DNA of 64,000 nt from a virus (IMGVR_UViG_3300045970_000027:1-64000), one strand, 5' to 3'. Positions 1 through 21,376 are shown, counted from the stretch's first letter. Program-made: numbers and translations. The notes: generated by a model from the letters alone, not told the origin.

Positions 1-286
1 TGATCAGCGAGCACTGGCAGACGTCGCCGTCGAGGTAGCAGCGCATCTCGGCTGAGATGTCCTTCATCCGAAGGAGGTAGGCCTCATCTACGGCGGGGCA
101 CAACTCGTCGTGTACCGGTCGCGGCCCCCAGAGGAGGGTATGCGTGCTGATGTCCTCCCCCTTCACATCGTCCAACGGGCAGGACGTATGCACGAAGACA
201 CCGAGGCGGGAGTGGTAGACCCACCCCAGTGACTCCCGCATCGGCTTCTCACAAACGGCACAGTTGTCATTCTCGTTAGGCTGCAT
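1..286 (-). CDS. Hypothetical Cys/His protein, truncated by window edge; C-terminal HDELC...CQC module
   Basis: Hand translation from ATG 286: MQPNENDNCAVCEK...HDELCP...CYLDGDVCQCSLI, open to position 1; overlaps end of 276..530. Confidence 0.6.
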   Translation of the reverse strand, partial: MQPNENDNCAVCEKPMRESLGWVYHSRLGVFVHTSCPLDDVKGEDISTHTLLWGPRPVHDELCPAVDEAYLLRMKDISAEMRCYLDGDVCQCSLI

Positions 287-530
287 CAGCCTTCCTTTCG
301 GCGGCGCGATAGTCGGTGAACGCTTGGTCGATGAAGGTGTTCGGGCAGGACGTCACGGACGGCTGGTACGTATTACCGCAGTCTCCGCACTCCCACGACA
401 CCGCGAGGATGCCCTGCAGGTAGCCGTCGGAGTAGCCGTGCGCGAACGCGATGATCTCGGGGGTCTGCTTCACGGTGTGAAGACCACCACCAGTTCGCCA
501 CACGACGAGTCCTCGTTGAGGACCGTCCAC
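276..530 (-). CDS. Hypothetical protein with CxxC (WECGDCG)
   Basis: ORF track; packed in leftward operon; start uncertain. Confidence 0.5.
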   Translation of the reverse strand: MDGPQRGLVVWRTGGGLHTVKQTPEIIAFAHGYSDGYLQGILAVSWECGDCGNTYQPSVTSCPNTFIDQAFTDYRAAERKADAA

Positions 531-10856: not shown

Positions 10857-12302
10857 ATGTCATTCGCCCTCTTCATCGAGACCGAGGCCACCCCACAGGG
10901 CAAGCCGCAGTACCTCGTCTTCCCGGCCAAGCCGGACGAGGCCGTCATCTTCTCCCGCATCACCGATGGCGGCAAGAAGGGCCTCAACGTCTGGAGGCCT
11001 GCCACCGCTATCAGCGAGACCCTCACGCTCACCCGTGAGCCGGTAGCCGTCGTCGTGACGAGCGCTGACGTCCTCCAGTACACGGTGACCGGCTTCCCGA
11101 AGGGGACGGCCACCAAGGCGCTCGCCGCCTTCCCGAGGTCACCCGAGACCACGGTCACGGTCGCCGATCTCGGTGACATCGTCCAGCGGGTGGCGACCTC
11201 CGACCTCACCCTGAACGCGTACATCCTCGACGGTCGCCGCGTGCGTCCGGTCGTCTTCGCGACCACACCGACACCGACCCCGTCCGGTGTCGTCACCCCT
11301 GCTGGTGCTGCCACCCCGGCCCCGCCCATCGAGGTCATCGTGCAGGACCCCGAGACGAAGGTCACCACGATCACCGTGCAGGCGACCCAGCCGACGCACG
11401 TCGTCCGGATGGCGCTCGTCCCCGACATCAAGGAGGCCAAGCGGTACATCCACCGCAAGGTCTCCGGTGTCTCGGACTTCTCGATCCTCGACTACGCCCG
11501 AGCGAACGGCCTCAACTGCCTCCTCTACGGACCGACTGGCTCTGCCAAGACGACCGTCGCGCGAGCGTTCGCGGCCAAGAACAACATGCCCGTCTTCATG
11601 GTCTCGGGGACGGTCTCACTTGAGGCATCGGCTCTCTTCGGTCGGTACATCCCCGACGGTGTCGGCGGCTTCGTCTGGCAGGACGGTGGCGTCACCGAAC
11701 TCGCCCGCAATGGTGGGATGCTGATTCTGGATGAGGTCAACTTCATCCCCAGCAAGATCGCCACGGTCCTCTTCAGCCTTCTGGCCGAGACCACCCGCTC
11801 GCTGACCCTGCTCGACCATAAGGGCGAGACCATCATGGCTCACCCCGATCTCATGATCGTCGCGACGATGAACCCGAACTACGTCGGGACGCAGGAGATG
11901 AACCAAGCCTTCCGCAACCGCTTCTCGTTGCAGATGGCGTGGGGCTACGACGACAAGGTCGAGAAGGTCCTCGTCCCCTTCAAGGCCCTCCGCGAACTCG
12001 CTGCCCAACTCCGTGAGTCGGAGGCAAAGCAGGAGATCATGACGCCGATCCCGACCAACGCGCTCATGGACTTCATCGAGATCAGCAAGGGTCTCGGCCT
12101 CGACTTCGCCATCAGCAACTTCCTCGCGAGGTTCGCTGATGACGAGATCAAGAAGGTCACCCTCGTCGTGGACGCACACCGCCTCAACATCGAGTCCGAC
12201 CTCTCCAAGGTCGCCCTCCCCGATGTCGAGGTCGATGAGGAAGAGGCAGCCGTCACGGTCGACCCCCTGCGCTCGCTGGCAGACATCGACCTCTCCCTCT
12301 AG
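10857..12302 (+). CDS. MoxR/CbbQ/CobS-family AAA+ ATPase
   Basis: Walker A GPTGSAKT, WQDG, Walker B LILDEVN, ATMNPNY.GT..MNQAFRNRF. Confidence 0.9.
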   Translation: MSFALFIETEATPQGKPQYLVFPAKPDEAVIFSRITDGGKKGLNVWRPATAISETLTLTREPVAVVVTSADVLQYTVTGFPKGTATKALAAFPRSPETTVTVADLGDIVQRVATSDLTLNAYILDGRRVRPVVFATTPTPTPSGVVTPAGAATPAPPIEVIVQDPETKVTTITVQATQPTHVVRMALVPDIKEAKRYIHRKVSGVSDFSILDYARANGLNCLLYGPTGSAKTTVARAFAAKNNMPVFMVSGTVSLEASALFGRYIPDGVGGFVWQDGGVTELARNGGMLILDEVNFIPSKIATVLFSLLAETTRSLTLLDHKGETIMAHPDLMIVATMNPNYVGTQEMNQAFRNRFSLQMAWGYDDKVEKVLVPFKALRELAAQLRESEAKQEIMTPIPTNALMDFIEISKGLGLDFAISNFLARFADDEIKKVTLVVDAHRLNIESDLSKVALPDVEVDEEEAAVTVDPLRSLADIDLSL

Positions 12303-12309
12303 CACGACC

Positions 12310-12346
12310 GGGGGCGTTCACAGTGTGAAAGCCGTGAGCGCCCCCG
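12310..12346 (+). terminator. Stem-loop enclosing a 13-bp motif copy
   Basis: GGGGGCGTTCAC...GTGAGCGCCCCC. Confidence 0.45.
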
Positions 12347-12374
12347 CCACAAACTCCTGACAGGAAGGCACACC

Positions 12375-14366
12375 ATGACTCAGTACGCCCCAATGCACAA
12401 CAGCCACTGGAAGGCTGGCAAGCAGTCGGAGGAGGAGATCCTCACCAAGCAGCAGCAGATCCGCGAGCGGCTCCTCTCAGTGACGGGGATCTACCAAGGT
12501 GCCGACCGCATCCTGACCGGCGAGAGGCTGCAGGTATGCCTGCAGGACGCCCCCGGCTCCCCGGCCGCATGGACTGACGGGACGACGATCTTCTTCAACA
12601 CGTCGGTCATCGAGAGTGTCGACGCCAACTCGATCCCCCGCATGCACGGGATGAACTTCCATGAGTTGGCCCACGTCCTCTACTCCCCCCGCAAGGGGAC
12701 CTCGCTCGTCTTCTGGATCATGGACAACGGCTACAAGCGTGCGGCCAACGTCCTTGAGGACCAGCGGATCGAGACCCTGCTCACCACCCGCTACCCGAGC
12801 ACGTCACCTTGGCTTCAGGCGACCGTGCTTCGGTGGGTACTGGTCGGTGGCGTAACCGATACCGGCTACCTCTGGGTGCGTGGACGCAAGTACCTCGACG
12901 GTCGCGTGCGTGGCGCTCTCCGCGCTGCCTTCGCCCGTCAGGATCTCCTCCCCGAGGTCGACGCCATCGTGGACGAGTACCGCACTCTCGCCTTCCCGGC
13001 CGACTACGAGAAGGCCAAGCCCCTCATCGAGCGCTACGCCGAGATCCTCCGCGAGGTCAACCCGCCTCAGAACGAAGACGGCCCCAGCGGTTGTGAGGGT
13101 CGCCCCGTCGACATCGACAAGGGACGCCCGAAGGGGCAGACCGAGCAGAAGCAGACCCGCGACAAGGCGAAGGATGGTGAGGACGAGGTCGAGCCTCAGC
13201 CGAAGCCTGAGTCGAAGGATGAGGACGCCGACGAGGCTGACGAGTCCGAAGGTCAAGGCGACGAGCAGGGCGACGAGTCCGATGAGGGCGACGAGTCCGA
13301 GGGTCAGGGTCAGGGCGACGCCGAGGGCGACGAGGCAGGAGAGGCTGGCGAGCCCAGCGACTCCGGCGAGTCTGACTCAGAGTCTGGCAAGGGTGAGCAG
13401 TCTGGCAAGGGCCAGAAGGGTCAGTCCGAGTCGGCCGACGCCAACGATGCCGAGCCTTCGGGTAACGCTGCTGGCAACGGGGCTGGCTCCAAGGAGAACA
13501 TCCTCAGGAACATCTGCGAGGACGTCCTCGATGAGATCCTCAACAGCGACGTCGTCAAGGAAGACATCCGGCAGACCCAGCGCACCCTGCGTGGGCTGAC
13601 CGGCTCCGACATCCTTGAGCGTGCGTCGTGGACTCCGCAGGAGCCGAACGTCGAGTTCGGTCTCAAGTTCGGGGAACTCTTCCGCTCCCTGAGCCGCCTC
13701 CTGCAGCAGGCCGATCCCGGCTGGCACGACCGTCAGGCGTCCGGCCGGATCAACGTCGACCGCTTCACCCGTGAGAAGGATTACGGGTCGGCGTTCGATA
13801 CGTGGGACGACGGTGTCCATGAGGCGTCCTCACTTGAGGTCGTCATTGCGGTTGACGAGTCGGGTTCGATGAACTCAGTTCGCAACCAGTCGATCTCGGC
13901 GATGTGGGTTCTCAAGCGCGCACTCGACAAGATCGGTGCGTCGGCGACCGTCCTCACGTTCGATGACTCCTCTCGCATCCTCTACCACCGGACCGAGCGG
14001 GCGACGACCGACGTGCGGTACTCGTTCCACGCTGGTGGGACGAACCCGGTCGACGCCTTCTCGCAGGCCGCTCGCATCTTCGCTGGCTCCGACAAGGCCC
14101 AGAAGGTGCTGATCGTCTTCACCGATGGTGAGTGGTACGCCGACTCCGATGAGGACGGCGTGTCGAGCGAGGAGTACATAGCGCGGCTCAACAGCGCTGG
14201 CGTCATCACCGCTCTCGGCTTCATCAAGTCGGGTGGCTACGGGAACTACGGGTCCAACAACAGCCACGGTGTGCAGATGCACCAGTCGGTGACTGTGGAC
14301 GACCTCGTCCCCTTCGTCAGCGGGATCGTCACCGAGTCGATCCGGCGCACGATGCGTCGTCGCTAG
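12375..14366 (+). CDS. CobT-like VWA protein (HExxH N-domain, acidic linker, VWA/MIDAS)
   Basis: HELAH, NVLEDQRIE, D/E/G/S-rich linker, VDESGSM, GGT, FTDGE. Confidence 0.9.
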   Translation: MTQYAPMHNSHWKAGKQSEEEILTKQQQIRERLLSVTGIYQGADRILTGERLQVCLQDAPGSPAAWTDGTTIFFNTSVIESVDANSIPRMHGMNFHELAHVLYSPRKGTSLVFWIMDNGYKRAANVLEDQRIETLLTTRYPSTSPWLQATVLRWVLVGGVTDTGYLWVRGRKYLDGRVRGALRAAFARQDLLPEVDAIVDEYRTLAFPADYEKAKPLIERYAEILREVNPPQNEDGPSGCEGRPVDIDKGRPKGQTEQKQTRDKAKDGEDEVEPQPKPESKDEDADEADESEGQGDEQGDESDEGDESEGQGQGDAEGDEAGEAGEPSDSGESDSESGKGEQSGKGQKGQSESADANDAEPSGNAAGNGAGSKENILRNICEDVLDEILNSDVVKEDIRQTQRTLRGLTGSDILERASWTPQEPNVEFGLKFGELFRSLSRLLQQADPGWHDRQASGRINVDRFTREKDYGSAFDTWDDGVHEASSLEVVIAVDESGSMNSVRNQSISAMWVLKRALDKIGASATVLTFDDSSRILYHRTERATTDVRYSFHAGGTNPVDAFSQAARIFAGSDKAQKVLIVFTDGEWYADSDEDGVSSEEYIARLNSAGVITALGFIKSGGYGNYGSNNSHGVQMHQSVTVDDLVPFVSGIVTESIRRTMRRR

Positions 14367-15838: not shown

Positions 15839-16344
15839 GCAGGGAGGTGGTCATCAAGTTCACCGTCTCCTTCCCTGAGGACGCGTTCTACGACTCGGAT
15901 GACAAGGAGATGTACGAGTACGCGCTACGGCACCTCGCCCGTTCGTTCTTCGATGCCGAGGGTGACATCCGAGCCGCCATGGCTAACGATAGGTGGGGTG
16001 CCGAGTGGTCGTGGCGGGAGGCCGACCGGTATACGTACGAAGAACTCGACCGAACGCCTCCACAACCACCGGCCGTCCTCACCACCTCAGCGGTGCAGAG
16101 CGCCGTCCAGAAGTTGAGGCAGCAGTCGTACGCCCAGATGTACCAACCCGCTGTCATCGGTGCCGACTTGTCGCACCTCATCGGGCACAACATGAGCGTC
16201 TACCTCGACCAGTACTCCGCTGCCGTCGAGCGCGAGGCCCCACCTGTCTTCGACCCGAACCGTATCGGTGAACTACTGGCCGAGAAGAAGGGGAAGACCT
16301 ACCCCGGCAAGACCGTCAAGTTCAACAGGAAGGGAAGCAAATGA
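15835..16344 (+). CDS. Hypothetical protein
   Basis: 169 aa, coupled. Confidence 0.7.
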   Translation: MSREVVIKFTVSFPEDAFYDSDDKEMYEYALRHLARSFFDAEGDIRAAMANDRWGAEWSWREADRYTYEELDRTPPQPPAVLTTSAVQSAVQKLRQQSYAQMYQPAVIGADLSHLIGHNMSVYLDQYSAAVEREAPPVFDPNRIGELLAEKKGKTYPGKTVKFNRKGSK

Positions 16345-16730
16345 GCGAGCGACCAGAAGTAGACCCAATCGACTACCTGCTGGCTGACCTCCACCGCGTC
16401 CTCTGCGGAGAGGGTGTCCACATGGGGCCGTGCCCCAACCCGCTGGCAGAGCAGGTCCTGCACAGGCCGTCCACGCGAATCTGGCTGGAGCGCGTCGTGT
16501 CCGGTGCCCGTGCTGATGAGCGTGAGAACTGGGAGCCGATGGTCCAAGCCCTGACCGACGAACTGCTGGCTAAGGATCAACCGCCAGATCCGAGCATGGG
16601 CGCTCAGTACCTCGCTGGCGTCAAGGCTGCGCGCGACGCGGTGGCTGCCACTGAACTGCGGGTGTTACACGCCAAGGGTGACGCCCTCGCCGCTATCGAC
16701 GGCCTTGGGGCTAGCGAGTCGCCTCTGTGA
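16341..16730 (+). CDS. Hypothetical protein carrying the AGVKAARDAV..ALAAIDG module
   Basis: C-terminus shared with 18572, 20532 and 21092 genes. Confidence 0.65.
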   Translation: MSERPEVDPIDYLLADLHRVLCGEGVHMGPCPNPLAEQVLHRPSTRIWLERVVSGARADERENWEPMVQALTDELLAKDQPPDPSMGAQYLAGVKAARDAVAATELRVLHAKGDALAAIDGLGASESPL

Positions 16731-17049
16731 ACTGGACGATGAGGGCCTCAGGTACACGACCCTTCTCGTTGACCTCGATCCCGTTCCTCTTCGCCCACTC
16801 CCGCACGTCCTTGGTGTCAACCTTCACACGACGAGGGGAAGGCGCACTGAGCGCCTCAGGTCTCGGTGAGGTGTCGGCACCAAGGCGGCGGGCTTTGGGG
16901 ATGAACGACTCGATCAGGTCGATCAGGTCACCACCATGCTTCTCGCATAGGTCGGCCTCGTAGAACGCCGACTGCCAGCCCAGCCTCACGGGATCCCGGT
17001 TAGTGGGGGCCTCGCATACGTCACAGATTCTCATCAACCTAGTAGCCAT
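16711..17049 (-). CDS. lsr2: Lsr2-family nucleoid/xenogeneic-silencer-like protein
   Basis: YEADL dimerisation motif; VREWAKRNGIEVNEKGRVP AT-hook domain; ATG 17049. Confidence 0.85.
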   Translation of the reverse strand: MATRLMRICDVCEAPTNRDPVRLGWQSAFYEADLCEKHGGDLIDLIESFIPKARRLGADTSPRPEALSAPSPRRVKVDTKDVREWAKRNGIEVNEKGRVPEALIVQFTEATR

Positions 17050-17064
17050 AAAGGAGATCAAACC

Positions 17065-17274
17065 ATGTCCGACCTCATGGATACGACCGCAGTAGCAAAC
17101 TACGTCGGTCTGAAACGAGAGACCGTCCGCTGGTACCACAAGTTCGACAAGATGCCGCCAGCCGACAAGTACTTCGGCCGCTCCCCCGTCTGGGAGAAGA
17201 CGACCATCGACCAGTGGGTAATCGACCGCGACACCGTTCACACCGTGAACGACAACGAGGAGGAGGAGTCATGA
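17065..17274 (+). CDS. AlpA/excisionase-like HTH DNA-binding protein
   Basis: LMDTTAVANYVGLKRETVRWY...P.P...GRSPVW....IDQW; AAGGAG RBS. Confidence 0.75.
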   Translation: MSDLMDTTAVANYVGLKRETVRWYHKFDKMPPADKYFGRSPVWEKTTIDQWVIDRDTVHTVNDNEEEES

Positions 17275-17609
17275 AGAAGTTCGTAATCGCTGTAGCACTC
17301 GCCGCTGCCTCTCTGACGGCCTGCGCTGGAACACCGACTGCCACCGTGACAGTCACCGAGACGGCCGCGCCTGTTCCTGACGCCCCTGTCTACACCGAGG
17401 AGCCGTTCACTCTGGAGTACATGGAGCGGCTCTGGCAGTACTCCAACGACGACGACCGTACTGGGGTATGCGCCAGTTTCATCATGACGCCCGAAGATGC
17501 GTGGGCTGGCTTCGATACCAAGCAGCGCTCGATCCAGCCACCGCCCTACATCACCATCGACCAGTTCTACGACTTCTTCAATAGAAAGTGTGGTGTCAGC
17601 AATGAGTAA
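17271..17609 (+). CDS. Lipoprotein
   Basis: MKKFVIAVALAAASLTAC lipobox; GGAGGAG RBS. Confidence 0.8.
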   Translation: MKKFVIAVALAAASLTACAGTPTATVTVTETAAPVPDAPVYTEEPFTLEYMERLWQYSNDDDRTGVCASFIMTPEDAWAGFDTKQRSIQPPPYITIDQFYDFFNRKCGVSNE

Positions 17610-18015
17610 CCATGTTGGTCTCCCAGTCATCGAGGTCACCGATACCGTCATCCCGGTAGGTAAGCCGAAGGGGAAGGTCACCTCGCTCGTCAAGACCGTC
17701 CTCTACTCCAACGGGGATACCGTCTACCGGTGTTCCGAGTGCGAGCGGGAGTTCCCGAAGTACATCTCCGTCATCGGGCACCTCAAGGCCCACCGCGACC
17801 GTAAGAGGTTGCGGGAGACGAGCGAGGTCCGGAAGGCCATCGAGATCCTGCAGAAGGTGGCCGAGCAGCCGACTCCGTCCGAGATCGCGAAGGTCATGAG
17901 GGAGAACAACAGCCTCAAGACCCGCCTCCGGAAGGAGCAGGCGGCTCGTCGTCAGGCCGAGAAGGATCTCCGCTACCTGCGGTCGTTCCTCCGTCAGGCG
18001 GTGGAGGCGGCATGA
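17602..18015 (+). CDS. C2H2 zinc-finger + coiled-coil protein
   Basis: YRCSECEREFPKYISVIGHLKAH. Confidence 0.7.
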   Translation: MSNHVGLPVIEVTDTVIPVGKPKGKVTSLVKTVLYSNGDTVYRCSECEREFPKYISVIGHLKAHRDRKRLRETSEVRKAIEILQKVAEQPTPSEIAKVMRENNSLKTRLRKEQAARRQAEKDLRYLRSFLRQAVEAA

Positions 18016-18575
18016 GTGAGATGTTCGTAGACGGACGTGACGATGGTCCGTGGGTCAAGGCCAAGGACGCCGAGGCCGCTGTCGCAGCAGCCCGACTAGA
18101 GGGTCGCAAGATGGCGATAGAGGAGAACCTTCCGATCTGGGAAACCGATGTCGCAGCAGCCCGAGCGGAGGGGCCAAAGGTCGGATACCACTCGCAGCGA
18201 TGTCAGCACTGCGATCACATCAGAGCAGCACACGCGCTGACCGCGAGCGGGTGTCTCGGTCACGCCCTGCCCGGTAGGCCGGGAGCCGAGTGCCCGTGCA
18301 GCGAGTTTGAGGGAGACAGCAGAATGAGTAAGCATCTGCCCGAGTGCCCTTGCGATATCTCGCTGAGCCAGTTCTGCATCTGTGATCGTCTGCGTACAGC
18401 CGAGCAGCGGGGCTACAAGCGCGGCATGGACGTGAACTACGACGGCAACATCAAGGCCGCGTTCGCTGACGGTCTGGAGGCTGCGCTGGAAGTTATCAGC
18501 CCGTGGGCCGATCTTGGACCCGCTGGGGCGCAGGCGTATCTCGATGTCGCCAAGTTGTTGGAGGGGAAGCCATGA
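18012..18575 (+). CDS. Composite hypothetical protein; internal in-frame start at 18324 begins an HLPEC..CIC module
   Basis: ORF track; GAGGGAG RBS before ATG 18324. Confidence 0.65.
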   Translation: MSEMFVDGRDDGPWVKAKDAEAAVAAARLEGRKMAIEENLPIWETDVAAARAEGPKVGYHSQRCQHCDHIRAAHALTASGCLGHALPGRPGAECPCSEFEGDSRMSKHLPECPCDISLSQFCICDRLRTAEQRGYKRGMDVNYDGNIKAAFADGLEAALEVISPWADLGPAGAQAYLDVAKLLEGKP

Positions 18576-18781
18576 GCGACCATCTGCCCGAGTGCAGTAG
18601 GCACGGGCTTGCCGAGGACTATCTGCGCGGAAACCAGTGCATCTGTGCCCGACTACGTTGGGCCGAACAACGCACGTTGAAGGCTGCTCGGGAAGCCGTC
18701 GCCGTCGCACTCGCATCTGGCTACCCCGACCCCGAGGCCATGCGCCAAGCCCTTGCCGCTATCGACGCGGTCGTCCCGTAG
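18572..18781 (+). CDS. HLPEC..CIC family small protein
   Basis: MSDHLPEC...CICARLR...ALAAIDA; GAGGGGA RBS. Confidence 0.7.
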   Translation: MSDHLPECSRHGLAEDYLRGNQCICARLRWAEQRTLKAAREAVAVALASGYPDPEAMRQALAAIDAVVP

Positions 18782-18923
18782 CCCCGGTGGCAGGTCGCGG
18801 CAATGGTCTGGTGGTTCGCCATCTGACTATTGCCGCCGACCTGTGGAGAACCTACCATCAGGGTGCCACCTTGGTGGTGAGGCGTTGGGCATGCGGAAGC
18901 GAGAGGTGGTGAGGGGATGAACC

Positions 18924-18983
<60 letters not shown>

Positions 18984-19100
18984 CAACCAACCCATACCCA
19001 ATGGCGTTCCACCCGGTCGGAGGCACCTTCCGGTGTCTACGGCTGGACAACGAGTCTCGCCACCATGGTGACGAACCCACGATAATAGGAGTGAAGTCAC

Positions 19101-20234
19101 ATGGTCTACACAGCAGCACGTAACGGTCGCTACACCGCGTACTACCTCGACGCCCTAGGTCGTCGTCGGTCTGCCGGTACGTTCGACACGGAGGGTGAGG
19201 CCCTCATCAGGGCAGCCGATGCCGAACGCAACCCCGGCACTCCTACCCACGGTGTGGCCAGCCAGAGGTACGCCGACTACATCGAGGCGTGGTTCCTGAC
19301 CGACTCCGTCCTCCCGGTCACGATGAACGGGTATGAGACCCACCTGAGGAAGCACGTCCTCCCCCTCATCGGGCACATGCCGGTCGGGGCGATCACCATT
19401 CACACTGTGAAAGGGGCTCTGGCTGACATCCGTAGTAAGGGGGCCAGTTCTCATACGGTGGCTCAATGCAAGGCGGCCATCGGCTCGTCATTCAAGCCTC
19501 TCGTCCCTACCGTCGTACTGGCCAACCCGACCCACGGCATCAAGATCCCGATCCCGCCGTCGAAGCCGTTCGACCTCGTTGACGAGGAGACGTTCGGTGC
19601 CATCCTCGCCAACCTCCCTACTCAGGGTTCCCGCCTCTTCGCCCTCTTCCTCGTCGCTACCGGCACACGGTTCGGGGAGGCGTCCGAGGTCCGCGTCCGC
19701 GACTTCAACTTCCGGACGAACGAGGTGGCCATCGTCCGTCGTGCGTCACAGGTCGGCTCTCGTCGGAACCGGGGCTCCCGCTACGCGGTGGTCGAGGGGA
19801 CGAAGGGTGGCATCTCCCGTGGCCGCTACCTCCCCGTCCCAGCCGAGGTCGCCACCATGATCGAGGACTGGGTCCGAGGTCTATCTGCCGACTCCCTCGT
19901 CTTCCCGAAGGACCGTGTCCTGTCGAACGCCCGTGCGAGGCGGTCTGCCACAAACGTGACCGGCCACCTCCCGAACGATAGGTGGAGGAAGGTCTGGAGG
20001 AAGGCCATCGAGGCTGCCGGTCTCGACTGGTACCCGAGGACGCACGACCTACGGCATGCCTACGCGACCAATCTGGTTGCGGAAGGTGTGAGCCTCCCCG
20101 AGACGAAGGACCTACTTGGCCACGCCAACATCATCACGACCATGAAGTACCAGCACGCAGTCGACCGCCAACGGAGCAAGGCCAGCAAGGCCGTCTCCGA
20201 CTTCATCCGAAAGGCAAACCATGGCACCCCGTAA
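19101..20234 (+). CDS. int: Tyrosine integrase
   Basis: TGTRFGE, TKGG, HDLRH, LGH..I.TT.KY catalytic set; next to attP. Confidence 0.93.
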   Translation: MVYTAARNGRYTAYYLDALGRRRSAGTFDTEGEALIRAADAERNPGTPTHGVASQRYADYIEAWFLTDSVLPVTMNGYETHLRKHVLPLIGHMPVGAITIHTVKGALADIRSKGASSHTVAQCKAAIGSSFKPLVPTVVLANPTHGIKIPIPPSKPFDLVDEETFGAILANLPTQGSRLFALFLVATGTRFGEASEVRVRDFNFRTNEVAIVRRASQVGSRRNRGSRYAVVEGTKGGISRGRYLPVPAEVATMIEDWVRGLSADSLVFPKDRVLSNARARRSATNVTGHLPNDRWRKVWRKAIEAAGLDWYPRTHDLRHAYATNLVAEGVSLPETKDLLGHANIITTMKYQHAVDRQRSKASKAVSDFIRKANHGTP

Positions 20235-20535
20235 GCAGAAGGTCGAGCACCGCTTCGTCATCATCAAGGAGAACCTGCCGGGGTCGGCATACCTCCTACT
20301 TCACAACCTCAGCGTCCCACTGGTGAGAGACGTCAGTGGGGTACTTCGGCTAGACCTAGACGAGTTGGACAAGTCGTTCCAGATGTCGGCGTGGACTAGT
20401 CTGGCTAACGCCAAGCGGTATGCGGCACAGCAGGTCAACCGGAAGTCCCTCCGCTGGGAGGAGACAGACGACGTCGTACACGCCCCAGACGCCGAGGTCT
20501 GGAAGGTCACGTTCATCGAGAAGGTGGAGTCATGA
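20221..20535 (+). CDS. Hypothetical protein
   Basis: ORF track; AAGG RBS. Confidence 0.7.
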   Translation: MAPRKQKVEHRFVIIKENLPGSAYLLLHNLSVPLVRDVSGVLRLDLDELDKSFQMSAWTSLANAKRYAAQQVNRKSLRWEETDDVVHAPDAEVWKVTFIEKVES

Positions 20536-20861
20536 CCTACACGGCTGATTCACCGCTCATCCCCGAGCATCTGCCCGACTGCCTGATGACGACACCGGGC
20601 GAGCATGGGGACTTCTACGCCGAGTGCATCTGCGACCGTCTGCGTGCAGCCGAGCAACAGGCAACTGCGAAGGCGCATGAGTTCTGCTTCCAGAAGGACA
20701 ACCATGAAGCCTTTGACGCTGGCGTGAAGGCGGAACGGGACCGCATCCGTAAGGGCGTGGACGAGTTGCAAACACCGTTGTGGTTTGAGTCGGTTATGGC
20801 CGTGATCGACGGTCCACATTGGGCGCCAACACCGAAAGTGAGAGGGAGCAGGGATGACTGA
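20532..20861 (+). CDS. HLPDC..CICDRLR family protein
   Basis: Paralogous motifs; GGAG RBS. Confidence 0.7.
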   Translation: MTYTADSPLIPEHLPDCLMTTPGEHGDFYAECICDRLRAAEQQATAKAHEFCFQKDNHEAFDAGVKAERDRIRKGVDELQTPLWFESVMAVIDGPHWAPTPKVRGSRDD

Positions 20862-21102
20862 GCACGGAGCAGAAGAGGACATCACCGTTGAGGAACTGGT
20901 CGCTGGGGTGATCGGTGAGACAGCCGGATATGTGTCGCTGTGCTGGGACCCGAAGCCGACTGGCGTGTTCGACAGCACCTTGGCGAGTGCCGCCGTGGAC
21001 AAGGCCGTTCAGCGCATCCTGTCGCTGCTGGCAGAGGCCGAAGCACGGCCTTCCGTTTGGGCGCCAACACCGAAAGTGAGAGGGAGCAGGGATGACTGAG
21101 CA
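20819..21102 (+). repeat. 46-bp perfect direct repeat (20819-20864, 21057-21102)
   Basis: TTGGGCGCCAACACCGAAAGTGAGAGGGAGCAGGGATGACTGAGCA x2. Confidence 0.95.
20854..21099 (+). CDS. Hypothetical protein bracketed by the 46-bp repeats
   Basis: IGE..G.VSLCW.PKPTGVFDS..A motif. Confidence 0.7.
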   Translation: MTEHGAEEDITVEELVAGVIGETAGYVSLCWDPKPTGVFDSTLASAAVDKAVQRILSLLAEAEARPSVWAPTPKVRGSRDD

Positions 21103-21376
21103 TCTGCCAGAGTGCCCATACTCTGCGCCTTGCCCCGCTGAGTGGCGCAACGCTCAGACGATCAAGGCCGAAGGGTTGCCCGTCCCGCATCGGATCGTTT
21201 CGGGATCGTCCGGTCGGTGCGTGGAGTGTGACGCGGGCGACTGCATCTGCTACGAGACTCGTCAGGCGTTCGCTGCTGGCGTGCAGGCTGCCCATGACGC
21301 GGTGGACAACGCACTCCGACCGGGGGCAGTAGGACGACTGACAGCCCTTGCCGCTATCGACGCACTCAAGCAGTGA
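21092..21376 (+). CDS. HLPEC..CIC family protein
   Basis: MTEHLPEC...CIC...AGVQAAHDAV...ALAAIDAL. Confidence 0.7.
   Translation: MTEHLPECPYSAPCPAEWRNAQTIKAEGLPVPHRIVSGSSGRCVECDAGDCICYETRQAFAAGVQAAHDAVDNALRPGAVGRLTALAAIDALKQ

Follow-up and report, generated by a model that had tools for sequence, protein, structure and literature searches.

What are the small proteins with an N-terminal HLPEC...CIC motif that stand on both sides of the integrase gene in an uncultured phage genome, and how do they come to differ from one another? We addressed this question in the window, a stretch of 64,000 nucleotides (nt) that makes up the first 64 kb of the 84,305-base viral record IMGVR_UViG_3300045970_000027 (estimated completeness 88%). 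Judged by its gene content, the record appears to be a temperate phage of an actinobacterium. An original prediction had described the proteins as a shuffled family in which a His/Cys3 metal-clamped scaffold displays a variable loop and is diversified by recombination at microhomologous anchors. Our searches indicate that the HLPEC...CIC proteins are a large, so far unnamed family of uncultured actinobacteriophages, about 70-130 amino acids (aa) in length. The explanation that we favor, with slightly better than even confidence, is that they are metal-clamped, dimeric accessory binders that swap cassettes.

The motif HLP[ED]C occurs exactly four times in a six-frame translation of the whole record (at 18333, 18581, 20568 and 21101, all on the + strand), and CIC follows it in all four copies. 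The DNA pattern CATCTGCCNGANTGC gave four matches in the window against 0.00 expected from 100 shuffles. These scans bear out the four modules previously placed at 18324, 18572, 20532 and 21092, and the DNA anchors quoted for them were recovered as repeat families D1, D2, D5 and D8. The family genes of the record, including fused, partial and divergent forms, are as follows.

18324-18575, + strand: family member 1, 83 aa from an internal ATG; MSKHLPEC, 9-aa loop, CICDRLRTAEQR; hidden Markov model (HMM) E 3.6e-22
18012-18575, + strand: fused open reading frame (ORF), 187 aa; an N-terminal second Cys/His module runs without a stop into the family module at ATG 18324
18572-18781, + strand: family member 2, 69 aa, the minimal complete form; MSDHLPEC, 14-aa loop, CICARLRWAEQR ... 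ALAAIDAVVP; HMM E 4.7e-17
20532-20861, + strand: family member 3, 109 aa; 9-residue N-terminal extension, HLPDC, 14-aa loop, CICDRLRAAEQQ; HMM E 5.1e-27
21092-21376, + strand: family member 4, 94 aa; MTEHLPEC, 42-aa loop, CIC, AFAAGVQAAHDAV, ALAAIDALKQ; HMM E 6.1e-9
16341-16730, + strand: partial paralogue, 129 aa; only the C-terminal anchors AGVKAARDAV ... ALAAIDGL; repeats D4, D5, D9 and D10
75158-75415 of the record, outside the window, - strand: divergent fifth member; MAYVHDPEC...CPFCDSLR; HMM E 5e-4

The HMM E-values of the four window copies are partly circular, as these copies are themselves rows of the HMM alignment (A4). Three copies carry CIC(D/A)RLRxAEQ as expected, and member 4 keeps CIC without RLRxAEQ. 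The loops do vary in length, but they measure 9, 14, 14 and 42 aa rather than spanning the proposed 9-38 aa. The loop of member 4 contains four additional Cys, one pair as CVEC, and 21 nt of its tail are identical to 18748-18768 (repeat D5). A ribosome-binding-like site, GAGGGAGA, lies 7 nt upstream of ATG 18324, and the family module of the fused ORF may also be translated from this start of its own. The ATGA of member 2 overlaps the stop of the upstream ORF. Member 3 has the same kind of overlap with ORF 20221-20535, and its last 14 codons fall within a 46-nt repeat described below.

Two further copies are incomplete or divergent. Gene 16341 has H-x3-C at its N-terminus and lacks CxC. It is not in the HMM alignment and matches the family HMM only at positions 54-97 (E 1.3e-5 to 2.7e-5), a C-half match that agrees with the tail AG(V)xAxxDAV...A(A/V)ID earlier noticed on this gene. 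The fifth member has CxxC where the others have CxC. An ORF at 1-330 (- strand), which runs off the left edge at base 1 and had been put forward as a distant HDELC..CQC copy, is not a detectable family member: it gave no HMM match even at E<=10, and its His is internal. This ORF (MQPNENDNCAVCEKPM...HDELC...CQC) has several Cys/His pairs of its own.

The + strand frames of the window family genes have coding-type GC content at the three codon positions (GC1/GC2/GC3), and their starts overlap upstream stops. Across 66 codon comparisons in the window anchors, 41 codons were identical, 15 differed synonymously and 10 non-synonymously. The excess of synonymous over non-synonymous changes indicates that selection acts on the protein. 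We take the four modules to be real, translated paralogues. None of the outcomes that would have refuted the original prediction was found: the loops vary, selection acts at the protein level, and no characterised family matches.

We next consider the extent of the family. An exhaustive HMMER search of 1.84 billion representatives returned 217 at E<=1e-3; its profile consisted of the three canonical window copies, so the family was defined by a search that they seeded. With a profile of 49 members, a word-indexed collection yielded 212; their sources are all metagenome or genome assemblies, and "hypothetical protein" is the most specific name that any of them has. The same kind of word-indexed search with the 69-aa protein alone returned only itself, and when the three window copies were used for a pattern scan of viral contigs, none of the 64 stretches proposed by it could be confirmed. 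We found no family in Pfam, PHROG, NCBIfam or PADLOC that matches the HLPEC...CIC proteins. Pfam zinc-finger and TAZ profiles matched 0/49 members at E<=0.01 and no window copy at E<=0.1. A tblastn search of 50,697 GenBank phage records gave no match with gene 20532 (E<=1), P0038 (E<=0.1), P0013 (E<=10) or 16341 (E<=1), where short queries and the low-complexity filter may hide weak matches; the window DNA polymerase, used as a control, matched 1430 records. A profile search of the kind suggested earlier yielded the 217 representatives, all unnamed and mostly metagenomic.

A full-text literature search for "HLPEC" gave only unrelated matches and nothing in print on the motif itself. In bacterial genomes (pattern CICDRLRAC, species-representative genome collection), one Actinomycetales metagenome-assembled genome (MAG) locus emerged from five candidate stretches, and this MAG is the only carrier among 401 genomes of its class. 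Its family genes lie at both ends of one contig (C45 of G005, 43,036 bases). A circularly permuted phage genome that was binned with the MAG would account for this placement better than an integrated prophage. Few of the small early genes in actinobacteriophages have been assigned a function; this family comprises more than 200 sequence clusters with a sharply conserved N-terminal motif.

The His/Cys3 set is the most conserved feature of the family. Of 233 fetched proteins, 228 have H-x3-C...C-x-C at or close to the N-terminus, and the loop between the ligands ranges from 4 to 39 aa with a mode of 12. Among the 228, the L, P and E of HLPEC are kept in 217, 224 and 217 proteins, and the second block reads C-I(199)-C-D(147)-R(148)-L(211)-R(210)-A(179)-C(166)/A(46)-E(200)-Q(141)-R(209). 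We infer that His4, Cys8, Cys23 and Cys25 hold one metal ion in an HCCC site, and zinc (Zn) is the most likely metal. The conservation of the four ligands fits the metal clamp of the original prediction. The constant scaffold does not stand: the C-terminal half varies as much as the loop, and the loops are discrete cassette types, identical in otherwise unrelated members, rather than a variable display on a fixed frame. We also considered an amino-terminal copper- and nickel-binding (ATCUN) motif, on the basis that His is residue 4 in 180/228 members and residue 2 is small in 173 of these 180, so that loss of the initial Met would leave most members with an X-X-His start. We downgraded this idea because the A-initial second codon (AGY Ser, ACN Thr) is also required by the overlapping TGA stop (29 of 30 starts) and because gene 20532 has its 9-residue extension.

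Protein comparisons point to the exchange of loops and C-terminal halves. We compared 21,528 protein pairs for loop versus C-terminal identity. Loops were at least 70% identical in 105 pairs; the C-terminal parts were at most 30% identical in 51 of these and at least 60% identical in 9, a discordant share that is inflated by the clustering of the protein sets at 50% and 90% identity, which removed concordant pairs. Conversely, the C-terminal parts were at least 60% identical in 26 pairs, 16 of which had loops at most 30% identical. Most multi-member loop types (26/34) are joined to at least two C-types, as are 13 of the 14 multi-member C-types to at least two loop types. Judging from these sequences, divergence alone cannot yield identical loops of 12-19 residues on unrelated C-halves.

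The same pattern is visible in DNA. Three phages with one loop type are 71-83% identical from the start codon to the end of the helix anchor, against 21-47% in the flanks. Two loci from relatives, L010 and L011, are 100% identical over 1119 nt and 99.5% identical over 615 nt, and they differ by a 177-nt in-frame indel (L010 5920-6096) inside a family gene. The additional 177 nt encode repeats of (G)YE(Q/E)GQRD, a motif also present in many family members. Pair discordance, the DNA trio and the indel together give good support to the proposed recombination at conserved anchors. The anchors themselves are not mere microhomologies as had been suggested but longer homologous blocks, in which the tail anchor, ribosome-binding site, ATGA and HLPEC codons run together.

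The sole DNA similarity between the record and L010/L011 is an island of 145-168 nt, 84-87% identical, which corresponds to a second module.

Window 18154/18177-18320, L010 6076-6241 and L011 6097-6241: second Cys/His module (KVGYHSQRCQHCDH...CPCSEFEGD); protein identity 79-88%

The consensus of this module is KVGY(H/Y)SQRCxHCDHIRAAHALTxSGCxGHALPGRPGAxCPCSEFEGD, with no Pfam match. It stands on the N-terminal side of the family module in the window and at the C-terminal end of a family gene in L010/L011. In all three the island ends at GAGGGAGA. The L010/L011 gene stops there (EFEGDQP and stop), whereas the window frame runs on into MSKHLPEC, which indicates that ORF 18012-18575 is a fusion product.

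What appears to be the freshest recombination trace in the window is a 46-nt repeat around gene 20854.

20819-20864, + strand: 46-nt exact direct repeat, copy 1 (D3, 100%, spacing 238); a gene end (WAPTPKVRGSRDD and stop), ribosome-binding site and start MTEH
21057-21102, + strand: 46-nt exact direct repeat, copy 2 (D3); leads into member 4
20854-21099, + strand: chimeric gene, 81 aa; its first 4 codons (MTEH) and last 14 codons are the repeat, on either side of a 192-nt body

The body looks like a captured domain fragment and weakly matches two phage families of unknown function (phrog_9132, E 8.8e-6; phrog_20553, E 3.1e-5). These matches cover internal parts only (63-118 of 200 and 304-358 of 471, respectively). 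We compared the window with contigs from X1 and X2, two DNA runs labelled pond metagenome. The contigs reproduce the family region without differences from the window's family genes, and they break at 20819-20864, as expected at a repeat. A contig piece at 20835-21086 bridges the body between the repeats in both runs. Depth over the body was near that of the flanks, at 26.6 against 33.8-39.4 in X1 and 6.6 against 6.66 in X2. In other contigs of X1 and X2, anchors that belong to different paralogues of the window are linked by foreign loops, in one case the loop of P0022; relatives with DNA-level anchor identity therefore co-occur.

Relatives have tandem arrays of as many as about seven genes, coupled in translation. 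At least two HMM matches were present in 13 of 27 records examined. One locus (L021) has about seven consecutive + strand genes with stop/start overlaps, among them a two-module fusion, a C-half-only gene and two genes with MTEHLP or MTEPLP and no Cys ligands. Of two complete genomes, one of 69 kb (G001) carries three copies and one of 43 kb a single copy. In L005, as in the window, family genes (three copies) immediately precede an integrase gene; in L008 and L009 they precede a glycosyltransferase gene. Neighbors in relatives include WhiB, helix-turn-helix (HTH), RusA, Rad52-like and HNH genes, which places the family in non-structural, early or lysogeny-proximal operons. Of 30 distinct starts, 29 read (A/G)TGA. 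In nine, the family tail anchor falls within the preceding 30 nt, and its final codons contain the ribosome-binding site. At every array junction, a single conserved block is therefore made up of the tail anchor with this site, the stop/start overlap and the HLPEC codons.

Structure prediction offers a possible reason for the conservation of the anchors. An AlphaFold2 model of member 2, made with the family alignment (69 aa; predicted local distance difference test (pLDDT) 81.9), has a coil at residues 1-14, a short helix, and helices at 25-48 and 54-67. CIC lies at the start of the long helix 25-48. In member 4, helices 52-74 and 80-93 are modeled with pLDDT above 90. The predicted fold that these models give is an N-terminal knuckle on a helical hairpin. 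A sequence search of the PDB reached a best E of 0.2, and the ESM Atlas returned just unnamed clusters, all below 0.9.

We predicted a homodimer of member 2 with a riding Zn. The interface score (ipSAE) had a median of 0.54 (0.02, 0.55 and 0.54 in three runs), against 0.00 for the best control. The dimer mark, which this prediction passed, was reached by 20/30 proteins solved as pairs of one chain and by 1/23 solved as single chains, a calibration that differs from the present use with a custom alignment and Zn. Contact agreement in the dimer runs was at least 8%, and partner pLDDT was at least 57. The predicted interface comprises residues 5-9, 22, 24, 27-47 and 56-67. Predicted contacts between like residues (24-24, 28-28, 31-31, 35-35 and 39-39) follow a two-fold axis along the long helices, and LPEC (5-9) of one chain packs on RLRxAEQR (27-34) of the other. 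The models thus predict a symmetric homodimer through the conserved anchors. Such an interface would explain the near-invariance of the anchor residues that are not ligands. The 69-aa member is a compact candidate for a new metal-clamped dimeric fold that should be easy to express and solve.

We propose the following model. By sequence and models, each protein consists of M-(S/T)-x-H-L-P-E-C, a cassette-like loop of 4-39 aa, and C-I-C at the start of a long helix (D-R-L-R-A-C/A-E-Q-R-V), followed by a helical hairpin with the anchors G-x-x-A-A-R-D-A-V and A-L-A-A-I-D-A-L. A metal ion would tie the N-terminus and loop onto the helix. Two copies would pair symmetrically through their long helices, with the HLPEC segment of each on the RLRxxEQR helix of its partner, and the common anchors would let paralogues pair with each other. 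Recombination in the junction block and in the CICDRLR block, both unequal and between phages, swaps loops and C-terminal halves. It also alters copy number and creates fusions and partial copies such as ORF 18012-18575, gene 16341 and gene 20854. The swapped cassettes would confer different specificities. From genomic context, we suggest that the proteins may be non-structural accessory binders that act on macromolecules of the host or phage, for instance to take over the host or to counter its defences. A further extension strikes us as rather improbable: with one dimer interface kept in all paralogues, n genes in an array could yield as many as n(n+1)/2 different homo- and heterodimers, each with two of the swapped cassettes (loops or C-terminal parts) on display, and exchange between co-occurring phages would renew this combinatorial repertoire against host defences.

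Several results weigh against this model. The N-terminal region, which would contain the metal site, is modeled with moderate confidence (pLDDT 64-74 in member 2, and 52-65 over residues 1-50 of member 4), and one of the three dimer runs scored the 0.02 given above. Foldseek found nothing in the PDB at E<=1e-3, with matches to generic helical folds only; a wide VIA-align search peaked at Z 5.5 with generic helical pairs; and a BFVD fold search gave nothing at E<=1e-3. Not every copy needs the metal site, since Cys ligands are missing from some array members (the L021 genes at 1531 and 1940, and gene 16341 in the window). Anchor conservation is partly a matter of DNA, because the ribosome-binding site lies in the last codons and TGA overlaps the start. 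The inflation of the discordant pairs belongs here as well. As to function, family members and P0013, P0016, P0019 and P0023 had no match in PADLOC-DB 2.0 at E<=0.01, apart from one marginal NurA match of gene 20532 (E 0.0084, 0 stretches). We found no fused forms among longer proteins of 231-2000 aa, which is weak evidence, and no fusion to a known domain in 23 longer or two-module proteins, all of which are without a Pfam domain.

The surroundings of the family genes in the window are as follows. Two gene clusters flank the integrase gene, and a set of small genes lies to the left.

19101-20234, + strand: tyrosine integrase (PF00589, E 3.2e-21), between two family gene clusters
18924-18994, - strand: tRNA-Pro(GGG), adjoining the integrase gene just upstream
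16711-17241, - strand: Lsr2-like gene (DNA-binding domain, E 5.8e-11), divergent from three small + strand genes
17065-17274, + strand: excisionase-like HTH gene, first of the three small genes
17271-17609, + strand: predicted lipoprotein (MKKFVIAVALAAASLTAC...), second of the three small genes
17602-18015, + strand: C2H2 zinc-finger protein (zf-C2H2_6, E 4.4e-7)

The tRNA-Pro(GGG)/integrase neighborhood is likely the attP region, judging from the following pattern. Bases 18900-18951 are common to many other contigs in X1 and X2 (depth about 944 and about 436) and are followed by divergence, as expected of an attP core that matches host tRNA-Pro genes. Loose contig ends lie at 18899/18900 and 18951-18957. 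A megablast search of the whole region gave no close relative, only a 43-nt tRNA piece that matches the end of Sinorhizobium phage phiLM21. The record encodes a class II ribonucleotide reductase, DNA polymerase A and baseplate J. The nearest cultured phages by the window DNA polymerase are Streptomyces phages, at only 36-37% identity (tblastn). The C2H2 finger is unusual for a phage. Elsewhere in the window, at 10857-14366, an AAA_5 (MoxR/dynein-like) ATPase gene is followed by the gene for a 663-aa protein with a von Willebrand A domain at its C-terminus and, in its middle, a long acidic stretch of low complexity.

Two other roles could account for the conserved N-terminus. The His/Cys3 set might ligate an iron-sulfur (Fe-S) cluster, in which case the proteins would be regulators that sense redox state or NO and, like WhiB proteins, bind to the transcription machinery of the host. 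Sets of three Cys and one His can hold Fe-S clusters, as in CDGSH/mitoNEET proteins, which also have a CxC pair. A fifth Cys follows in 166/228 members, the Lsr2, WhiB and DUF4192 genes suggest an actinobacteria-like host, and WhiB genes lie near family genes in three loci (L005, L008 and L010). The fifth Cys is absent, however, from all four window copies; 0/49 members match Pfam Whib or any Fe-S family at E<=0.01; and the order and spacing of ligands in WhiB and CDGSH differ from those of the family. We consider an Fe-S role unlikely. Somewhat less probable still is a role as small zinc-finger-like DNA- or RNA-binding regulators, in which the basic helix RLRxxEQR would read nucleic acid and the dimer would read two-fold-symmetric sites. 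Three conserved Arg on the helix beside the presumed metal site, the symmetry of the predicted dimer and the regulatory or lysogeny-proximal placement beside the Lsr2-like gene, HTH gene and C2H2 protein all suit such regulators. The predicted dimer buries the Arg, Glu and Gln in its interface against HLPEC instead of exposing them, and arrays of up to about seven genes with swapped halves would be unusual for site-specific regulators. No DNA-binding family or fold was matched by the 49 members in Pfam or in the fold searches.

The variation itself could also be read differently. The anchors might act mainly at the DNA level, as junctions for translational coupling or as recombination hot spots spreading through arrays, and the encoded peptides would then do little by themselves. 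The single junction block of tail anchor, ribosome-binding site, ATGA and HLPEC codons is what such elements would produce, as are the exact 46-nt repeat and the family start and end of gene 20854 around an unrelated body. We nevertheless judge this very unlikely: residues are kept despite synonymous changes in the anchors (15 against 10 non-synonymous), the internal CIC-helix anchor is the best conserved block although it is far from the junctions, the ligands are kept in 228/233 proteins, and the models have a confident fold. Finally, the great differences in loop length and sequence between members recall targeted hypervariable display, in which a mutagenic system such as a diversity-generating retroelement diversifies the loop. 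The 84-kb record (estimated completeness 88%) gave no match to the reverse transcriptase profile PF00078, which did match in the control genomes; the loops are discrete types that recur unchanged in otherwise unrelated proteins; and the X1 and X2 contigs are identical to the window's family genes. Such hypermutation is therefore highly improbable.

Metal-clamped, dimeric binders that swap cassettes remain the explanation that we favor. Whatever their targets, the genes show intragenic cassette shuffling in nature with unusual clarity: the homology for recombination comes jointly from the conserved codons, the stop/start overlap and the ribosome-binding site. Should the proteins turn out to serve in counter-defence or host takeover, the family would offer natural variants as a library ready for use. 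If the combinatorial reading is true, it would be a recombination-driven, metal-clamped phage binder system without a described counterpart.

We compared the family with known metal-binding proteins. HCCC zinc sites are a type described for TAZ domains (PMC3105382). Like the TAZ domains of CBP/p300, the family would use one His and three Cys per metal, with ligands at helix ends or in a connecting loop, in a small all-helical protein-binding module. The ligand spacing of TAZ resembles the family's H-x3-C start and modal 12-residue gap. The family differs in having one putative site where TAZ has three, a last ligand pair in the form C-x-C, and a loop of free length (4-39). It also differs in having no Pfam zinc-finger match, in its phage tandem arrays and in its predicted homodimer. 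WhiB proteins (PF02467) are likewise small, Cys-rich and encoded in actinophage early regions, close to family genes in three loci. WhiB has four Cys with another spacing, whereas the family has one His and three Cys at the extreme N-terminus. The profile tool that matched 0/49 family members recognized true WhiB genes in neighboring ORFs at E 1e-7 to 3e-17. The ZAS anti-sigma motif, H-x3-C-x2-C, has the same H-x3-C start and occurs in small helical regulators of actinobacteria. The four window copies (HLPECPCD, HLPECSRH, HLPDCLMT and HLPECPYS) have no Cys three residues after the first Cys. The other two ligands follow 4-39 residues later as C-x-C, and Pfam gave no match.

We also compared the exchange of cassettes with known modes of phage diversification. 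The family lacks the features of a diversity-generating retroelement target, having loops of discrete shared types in a record, 88% complete by estimate, that gave no PF00078 match. In Cluster K mycobacteriophages, Start-Associated Sequences are a conserved DNA block repeated at many gene starts in a genome (PMC3203893). The family block differs from them in spanning the last codons of one gene, the ribosome-binding site and the first 8 codons of the next gene, and in encoding conserved residues. Start-Associated Sequences are short blocks just upstream of start codons. The Hendrix and Hatfull laboratories have reportedly described the mosaic evolution of phage genomes by exchange at gene boundaries. 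The family shares with such mosaicism its sharp-bordered modules and unrelated flanks, with borders here at the ribosome-binding site or start codon. It differs in that exchange is also intragenic, at anchors within one small gene family, and gives combinatorial products of N-halves and C-halves.

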